Below are positions 19,251 to 19,475 of a stretch of 64,000 nucleotides of DNA, piece after piece; the stretch's first letter is position 1, and each line of letters starts with the position of its first letter. The notes below the pieces were generated by a model. That model ran no database searches. It saw nothing but the letters and a program-made list of their open reading frames with translations, and was not told the DNA's origin. The stretch lies in assembly GCF_054482595.1 (NCBI RefSeq), contig NZ_CM137008.1. One strand, given 5' to 3'. The position numbers were made by a program, and so were the translations under genes.

Positions 19251-19475
19251 TCAGTGTTTTATTACCTTAATCTTTTTACGGCATTCTTCAGCTCTTGCGC
19301 ATGCTATTTTTTCACCTGTTTCATAACATTGCTGGCAGCCTAATCCAAATTTCATCGCCATATCATAACCTTCCCGAAAACCTCGGAACCACGCGTTACG
19401 AAGGTATTCATCATATTCCCCGCAGTCAATAATAACCATTTTATTTTCATGGGATTTTCCGGTATTCTCACTCAT
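19251..19475 (-). CDS. Hypothetical small Cys-containing protein
   Basis: ORF track gives 19251..19610; an internal ATG at 19475 has a GAGG ribosome-binding site, giving 74 aa. No recognisable family. Confidence 0.35.
   Translation of the reverse strand: MSENTGKSHENKMVIIDCGEYDEYLRNAWFRGFREGYDMAMKFGLGCQQCYETGEKIACARAEECRKKIKVIKH

Follow-up and report, generated by a model that had tools for sequence, protein, structure and literature searches.

A small orphan gene co-inherited with a horizontally acquired sodC gene on mobile DNA of a few Enterobacteriaceae

The small open reading frame that lies beside sodC on a leuX-associated genomic island is very probably a genuine protein-coding gene, judged by the pattern of substitutions between its copies. 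On the same comparisons its product is under purifying selection, and the gene is co-inherited with a horizontally acquired gene for a periplasmic Cu,Zn superoxide dismutase. The DNA analysed, referred to below as the window, is a stretch of 64,000 nucleotides from contig NZ_CM137008.1 of RefSeq assembly GCF_054482595.1, and all coordinates are those of the window unless another contig is named.

Position and start of the small gene

The preliminary description of the locus had placed a 74-residue product, read from an ATG at 19475 with a supporting ribosome binding site, between sodC and an IS3 remnant. The reading frame, its start and both neighbours were recovered as described, with an IS3-family remnant at approximately 20413-21031 on the far side. 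The features concerned are as follows.

18598..19122, plus strand: sodC, encoding a periplasmic Cu,Zn superoxide dismutase of the sodCI-like type (174 aa) and found beside every copy of the small gene
19251..19475, minus strand: small gene of 74 codons, stop codon included, with the product MSENTGKSHENKMVIIDCGEYDEYLRNAWFRGFREGYDMAMKFGLGCQQCYETGEKIACARAEECRKKIKVIKH
19484..19487, minus strand: Shine-Dalgarno-like GAGG, 8 nt 5' of the ATG

An identical 74-aa coding sequence is already present in RefSeq as a 'hypothetical protein' (WP_024210520.1, E. coli O157:H16 Santai). The mechanically defined reading frame is longer, giving 119 aa from an ATG at 19610, and this 119-aa form is the one called by some sources. 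The in-frame 5' extension to 19610 is frameshifted or stopped in the copy from Klebsiella and is different in L006, a metagenome contig from a Kluyvera-like organism. Because the extension is not kept in these two copies, the 74-aa form is the conserved one. A ribosome binding site was found at the equivalent position in both, as GAGG in Klebsiella and AAAGG in L006.

The small gene lies in DNA of low G+C content, 37-44% over 19150-20350 compared to 50-57% in the flanking IS66 and IS3 DNA. The AT-rich character reported earlier for the surrounding non-coding DNA was therefore borne out, but its length, given as about 800 bp, was too short, as approximately 937 bp without annotated genes separate the 5' side of the small gene from the IS3-family remnant. 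A Pfam search for hidden genes among the open reading frames of this upstream 940 bp gave no match. Unannotated reading frames of 77 and 80 aa occur in the adjoining DNA, and with chance frames of this size next door the length of the small reading frame alone is not beyond chance. On the comparisons given below, it is conservation rather than length that marks the frame as real.

Evidence for a protein-coding gene

The preliminary description had held that a lack of conservation in related islands would count against the gene. Orthologues with the same boundaries were found in K. pneumoniae and in the Kluyvera-like organism. The E. coli, K. pneumoniae and L006 products are 74, 74 and 75 aa long, and across these three lineages the ATG and stop codon are aligned and the ribosome binding site is kept. 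Between E. coli and Klebsiella the small gene carries 13.5 synonymous differences over 41 sites and 16.5 non-synonymous differences over 181 sites, giving a dS of 0.43 and a dN/dS of 0.22, with a binomial p of 4e-4 for the synonymous excess. The neighbouring sodC gave a dS of 0.46 and a dN/dS of 0.09 for the same pair. Between E. coli and L006 the synonymous sites of the small gene are saturated (pS 0.86-0.91), and the pN of 0.15 in core residues 19-65 is comparable to the value of 0.18 obtained for sodC. Variants within E. coli fall among the first 20 residues, and the other frames and the antisense strand of the E. coli and Klebsiella copies contain stops.

It is highly improbable that what has been conserved is instead an element acting as DNA or RNA, for example an sRNA or an antisense or 3' element of sodC, or that the frame is the fragment of a larger decayed gene; the chance frames of similar length in the adjacent AT-rich DNA and the lack of protein relatives outside the sodC-linked module would suit such an origin, but the substitutions follow the codon period, saturating the synonymous sites and leaving the non-synonymous ones conserved, the start, ribosome binding site and stop are retained in all three lineages, the 5' in-frame extension is not conserved, an Rfam search gave no RNA family over the frame, and the putative leader showed no significant RNA structure (z = -0.64) and no meaningful consensus structure. 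A role as a 3' element of sodC is excluded, because in L006 the small gene is no longer convergent with sodC.

Distribution and relatives

This DNA was present in 125 of 5,426 complete E. coli genomes, with an identity of at least 99.4%. The orthologue from K. pneumoniae (P0004) has 74 aa and 81% identity, and a more distant orthologue (P0010) of 75 aa, with 54-63% identity depending on the method, is encoded on two Kluyvera-like metagenome contigs (L006 and L007). Two word-indexed searches covering 5.8 billion proteins and an exhaustive HMMER search of 1.84 billion representatives returned nothing beyond the E. coli-type copies, one Klebsiella copy and P0010. One further candidate, P0011, was discarded as a spurious match to a low-complexity repeat protein. 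No relative was found in 100,044 GTDB species-representative genomes, and none in IMG/VR. A degenerate DNA pattern for the motif AW[FY]RGFREGY retrieved eight contigs from the JGI metagenomes, all of the E. coli type. A weak tblastn match in Salmonella phage S.Kent 1-2-1 lay in an unrelated 49-aa reading frame and was rejected, and a literature search found nothing on the small reading frame. By these searches the gene represents a very small orphan family that is confined to the mobile DNA of a few Enterobacteriaceae.

Linkage with sodC

In the window sodC and the small gene are convergent and 128 bp apart. A sodCI-like sodC was found within approximately 1 kb of every copy of the small gene, the surrounding mobile DNA being ridden with insertion sequences; the two genes adjoin in E. 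coli, in K. pneumoniae, on L006 and L007, and on IncF plasmids from both E. albertii and E. coli. The pair is convergent in E. coli and Klebsiella and divergent on L006 and L007, where an IS3-type remnant lies between the two genes and sodC is 71% identical to that of the window. When the complete E. coli genomes were searched, a query centred on the small gene and a query containing sodC each matched 125 genomes; we infer that the two sets are identical, and that the small gene never occurs without sodC in these genomes.

Comparison of the E. coli and Klebsiella loci gave an identity of 88.6% for sodC, 77% for the 128-bp spacer and 86% for the small reading frame. Upstream of the small gene the identity is 79% over 165 bp (19476-19640) and 34% beyond 19640. 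This collapse implies that the shared unit consists of sodC, the small gene and a short upstream region.

The Klebsiella locus (L004, 1401-4438) contains sodC, followed by an unrecognised 71-aa reading frame and then by the three genes (FecCD, periplasmic binding protein and ATPase) of an iron-type ABC importer. This setting may be nearer to the original context of the module.

Candidate regulatory sites

The following features lie outside the two genes.

19476..19640, minus strand: upstream region conserved with Klebsiella, position 19640 being the edge of the shared module
19576..19604, minus strand: candidate sigma-70 promoter, TTGAAT (19604-19599), 17 nt, TATACA (19581-19576)
19502..19515, no strand: perfect 14-bp palindrome AAAAGTATACTTTT, within the upstream block of highest conservation
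19129..19153, no strand: GGGTAAGGGAGGATATCCCTTACCT, a G+C-rich hairpin separating the stop codons of the convergent genes

The candidate promoter was read off the alignment and was not listed by a strict promoter scan. Klebsiella and L006 have the same TTGAAT and 17-nt spacing, followed by TATAAA and TAGAAA respectively, and the TTGAAT-17-TATACA arrangement is a putative promoter on this evidence. The palindrome falls in the block at 19491-19529, which has an identity of 92% between E. coli and Klebsiella, and its sequence could represent either an operator or a chance occurrence; as RNA it showed no significant structure. Read on either strand, the hairpin at 19129-19153 resembles a terminator; Klebsiella has kept its stem, and a related hairpin lies directly 3' of the small gene in L006.

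On the other side of the pair, the homology to Klebsiella upstream of sodC stops approximately 70 bp before the sodC ATG. The region concerned, 18487-18597, is abutted by a truncated IS66 tnpC (reading frame 17101-18486), and the native promoter region of sodC may have been curtailed or replaced by IS-derived sequence.

Predicted structure and conserved residues

The small protein is hydrophilic, with a GRAVY of -0.75 and a pI of 6.3-7.7, and has neither a signal peptide nor a membrane segment. Structure prediction had been proposed in the preliminary description, and AlphaFold2 gave a single antiparallel two-helix hairpin. The model contains a helix over residues 18-42, a four-residue loop (43-46) and a second helix over residues 47-73, with residues 1-17 predicted to be disordered. 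It was built on an alignment of three sequences, with a mean pLDDT of 78.5, rising to approximately 95 for residues 31-60, and a pTM of 0.63; a model from the single sequence was poor. The product is predicted from these properties to be a soluble cytoplasmic protein consisting of one antiparallel two-helix hairpin.

The invariant columns of the alignment cluster in residues 20-62, where they occupy every face of helix 1 as well as the first half of helix 2. Across the three lineages nearly all of R26-A40 is invariant, as is the stretch F43-G-L-x-C47-Q-Q-C50-x-E-T-G-E-K, and variation is found in the first 18 residues and in the last 9, with the exception of the C-terminal histidine, H74. The protein had been called Cys-rich, and five cysteines are indeed present (residues 18, 47, 50, 59 and 65), but just three of the five are conserved: C47, C50 and C65, together with H74, are alone among these residues in being invariant in the three lineages. 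C59 is replaced by tyrosine in P0010, and C18 is absent from the Klebsiella and P0010 lineages. A C18Y allele (window 19424-19422) was also found in four of the eight E. coli-type metagenome contigs (L015, L016, L018 and L019). With a periodicity of 3.5 residues, helix 1 sets A28, G32, G36 and A40 opposite C47, C50, G54, A58, A62 and C65 of helix 2. Such a seam of small residues has the pattern expected of a very tight antiparallel hairpin, which this sequence would appear to form.

Comparison with known families

The earlier statement that no family could be recognised held throughout the profile-library and fold searches. The small protein had no significant match in Pfam, NCBIfam, PHROGs or PADLOC, and a sequence-profile search of the PDB returned nothing. 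Fold searches returned generic hairpins only, and Rop and other RNA-binding hairpins were absent from the hit lists. A sub-threshold match to phrog_8549 (E = 0.19) was not consistent across the members.

Several candidate families were examined and rejected. DUF7574 (PF24459) matched P0010 with 15.1 bits (E = 0.023) against a gathering threshold of 27 bits, and the other two members were unmatched; nothing was found in the literature on this family. The RMF/CrpP family (PF04957) was considered because of a likeness to RMF, also a small, basic and aromatic helical protein, in the motif R-x-x-W-x-x-G-[WF]-R-E, which occupies residues 26-35 here and 37-46 in RMF. The length, the cysteine pattern and the second helix are however unrelated, hhalign against E. 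coli RMF gave a probability of 8% over 13 columns, and none of the three members had a Pfam match to PF04957 at E<=10. The C4 zinc finger of TraR/DksA has two CxxC motifs approximately 17 residues apart, compared to a single CxxC (47-50) in the small protein, which had no Pfam match to this group. CHCH or twin Cx9C hairpins carry one Cx9C on each helix, whereas here the conserved cysteines are all on helix 2 and helix 1 has only C18; Foldseek matches to mitochondrial hairpin subunits had E>2. A CxxC oxidoreductase of the thioredoxin fold was rejected since, although the CxxC starts helix 2, the model is all-helical and contains no strands. Copper storage proteins of the Csp type (DUF326) are four-helix bundles with many cysteines, whereas the small protein has only three conserved cysteines and no Pfam match.

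Two known systems offer structural analogies. Rop, the repressor of primer of ColE1, is a 63-aa helical hairpin that dimerises into a four-helix bundle. The small protein is of similar size, is also encoded on mobile DNA, is also predicted to be a single antiparallel hairpin and would also be packed tightly through small residues, here G32, G36, A28 and A40 against G54, A58 and A62, a likeness of fold class only and not of homology. In the zinc hook of Rad50 an antiparallel coiled coil has a CxxC at its tip, and two hooks share one Zn. The single invariant CxxC of the small protein comes directly after the loop, and its invariance is centred on the loop-proximal half. This is a geometric analogy without homology, between a protein of 74 aa and a long SMC-type protein.

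Possible function of the CxxC hairpin

The reading that we tentatively favour from the model and the alignment is that the protein is a cytoplasmic hairpin whose CxxC serves in pairing or sensing that depends on metal or redox state. The working part would be the invariant loop-proximal half, formed on helix 2 by the N-terminal cap with F43-G-L-x-C47-Q-Q-C50 and on helix 1 by a ladder of arginine and aromatic residues (R26, W29, R31, F33, R34 and Y37). The CxxC would either bind a metal ion (Zn or Cu) shared by two hairpins, in the manner of Rad50, or form a reversible disulfide. As there is one CxxC and no second pair, a metal site would most plausibly be shared between two chains; a monomer, with its single CxxC and with C18 and C59 variable, would have no classical four-Cys site. 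The metal or disulfide event would then switch the pairing, or the partner binding, of the arginine and aromatic face. In this way the protein would serve an oxidative-stress cargo module as a small accessory that responds to metal or redox state, without being an enzyme or being required by SodC.

In a cytoplasmic protein this small, chance is an unlikely reason for an invariant CxxC that caps the N-terminus of helix 2. The genetic context for a metal or redox reading is a Cu,Zn oxidative-defence enzyme beside every copy and, in Klebsiella, an iron-type ABC importer as well. A CxxC that is functionally active towards metals or redox changes is a real possibility on the conservation pattern, although short of probable. 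A tip-to-tip, metal-bridged dimer, drawn by analogy with Rad50, is decidedly unlikely. The most far-reaching version, in which the protein would be the founder of a family of CxxC-switched mini-hairpins with a tip CxxC shared by two chains, and a dedicated cytoplasmic accessory of the mobile Cu,Zn sodC that tunes its expression or metallation through sensing or buffering of Zn, Cu or oxidant, is more speculative still and very unlikely.

The position of C47, C50 and C65 on the predicted helix-helix seam, opposite glycine and alanine, means that they could instead be no more than small residues in the core of a tightly packed hairpin. In that case the protein would be a constitutive binder or adaptor, with the arginine and aromatic face of helix 1 contacting an RNA or protein partner in the manner of Rop or of a small modulator. 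This is a doubtful but substantial alternative. It would account for the invariance of helix 1 on all faces, beyond the packing seam, and for the dispensability of C59 and C18, and a 13-residue stretch (RNAWFRGFREG) resembles the C-terminal, rRNA-contacting helix of RMF (RSQWLGGWREA). The resemblance to RMF is however not significant in either the hhalign or the Pfam comparison, Rop and RNA-binding hairpins were missing among the fold-search matches, and the near-neutral net charge implied by a pI of 6.3-7.7 is low for a nucleic acid binder. An invariant CxxC with a third cysteine and a C-terminal histidine would also be unusual for a purely structural role.

Loss and persistence of the small gene beside sodC

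The small gene is intact in 105 of the 125 E. coli carriers. The remaining carriers, approximately 20 (~16%), have kept sodC without an intact small gene, and at least five independent IS truncations or insertions were identified, at codons 22, 44, 50 and 70 and at the 3' end. In the IncF plasmids from E. albertii and E. coli, sodC is identical and the small gene is cut at codon 44, equivalent to window position 19346 (pEA04.3, L002 4950-5140, and pCFSAN083828_2, L003 4950-5140). The element responsible is an IS2-like member of the IS3 family that ends in ...GGGGCAAATCCA. The same two plasmids also carry the 1165-aa autotransporter that is found at window 7595-11092. A tblastn search found the small gene on only five plasmids, and all five copies were truncated.

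Some twenty other E. coli plasmids carry a sodC with 78-83% identity. The 79%-identical sodC on plasmid A of E. coli strain D1, a phage-plasmid (L011, 3001-3528), has no small gene beside it and is inserted between a tail assembly gene and the host-specificity J gene in a moron-type arrangement. The sodC 'moron' modules, which include sodCI of Salmonella Gifsy-2 and the sodC genes of E. coli prophages and phage-plasmids, resemble the present locus in carrying a sodCI-like sodC on mobile DNA. They differ from it in having no homologue of the small gene, and the pair described here lies on an IS-flanked island or plasmid fragment and not on a prophage. Since carriers have lost the small gene yet keep sodC, and the phage-plasmid sodC occurs without it, SodC does not depend on the small gene. 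The dependence is one-sided: the small gene is not required for the maintenance of sodC.

The linkage of the two genes may reflect the common descent of one mobile fragment and not function, with two independent arrangements known. In its strongest form this explanation holds that the small gene was functional beside sodC in an unsampled donor and is now decaying as neutral cargo in E. coli, so that the linkage has no meaning there; it is compatible with either of the molecular mechanisms considered above operating in the donor. The identity of at least 99.4% among the E. coli copies indicates a recent spread, and the losses in ~16% of carriers, the several independent insertions and truncations and the related phage-plasmid sodC without a small gene are all as expected of neutral cargo. 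The katG beside the L006 copy also belongs to the host: it is 90% identical to the katG of Kluyvera, which there has metF and an EamA gene instead, and a functional link between the small gene and katG was rejected, as a core gene of the host gives no functional hint. We nevertheless regard neutral carriage as unlikely. Purifying selection on the small gene has been long-term and as strong as that on sodC through much divergence, the pair has stayed together in three hosts despite a change of orientation and different flanks, and 105 of 125 E. coli carriers have retained an intact copy within an island saturated with insertion sequences.

Surrounding island

The window represents a leuX-associated island, with the tRNA-Leu(CAA) gene leuX located at 47379-47463 on the minus strand. 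A 421-aa reading frame beside leuX (45927-47192, minus strand) is presumed to be an integrase, which would place the boundary of the island here. The structure is strongly mosaic, with fragments of IS66, IS3, ISL3, IS91 and IS1; a group II intron carried by the Santai reference is apparently absent from the window.

A sub-threshold Rfam match to isrC was obtained at 20392-20474 on the plus strand, with 33.5 bits against a gathering score of 39 (E = 1.2e-4). The isrC RNA is an Hfq-binding sRNA encoded on a Salmonella island. The match overlaps the end of the IS3 remnant, and the region 20411-20700 is approximately 77% identical to IS3-family ends on many plasmids, so that the match may merely reflect similarity between IS ends. 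Beyond the IS3 remnant is a truncated gene for a LysR-type regulator (21717-22298, minus strand), of which a full-length copy (WP_001084376.1, L010 2055-2984) is located on the E. coli IncF plasmid pHN68-1. This plasmid also shares the IS3 remnant and approximately 300 bp of the downstream spacer (window 20114-20700), which is followed by IS1 and not by the small gene.

Significance of the small gene

The small gene is typical of the uncharacterised small reading frames that ride on genomic islands. Databases already list its product, which has a common fold and no known relatives, as a hypothetical protein, and the correct start is that of the 74-aa form and not that of the 119-aa form of some annotations. 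It is a modest curiosity that will not surprise a specialist and opens no long-standing question. If functional, it would provide a tractable 74-residue example of a helical hairpin bearing a CxxC. It would also be an added partner for the sodCI-type superoxide dismutases, which contribute to the survival of enteric pathogens in phagocytes.
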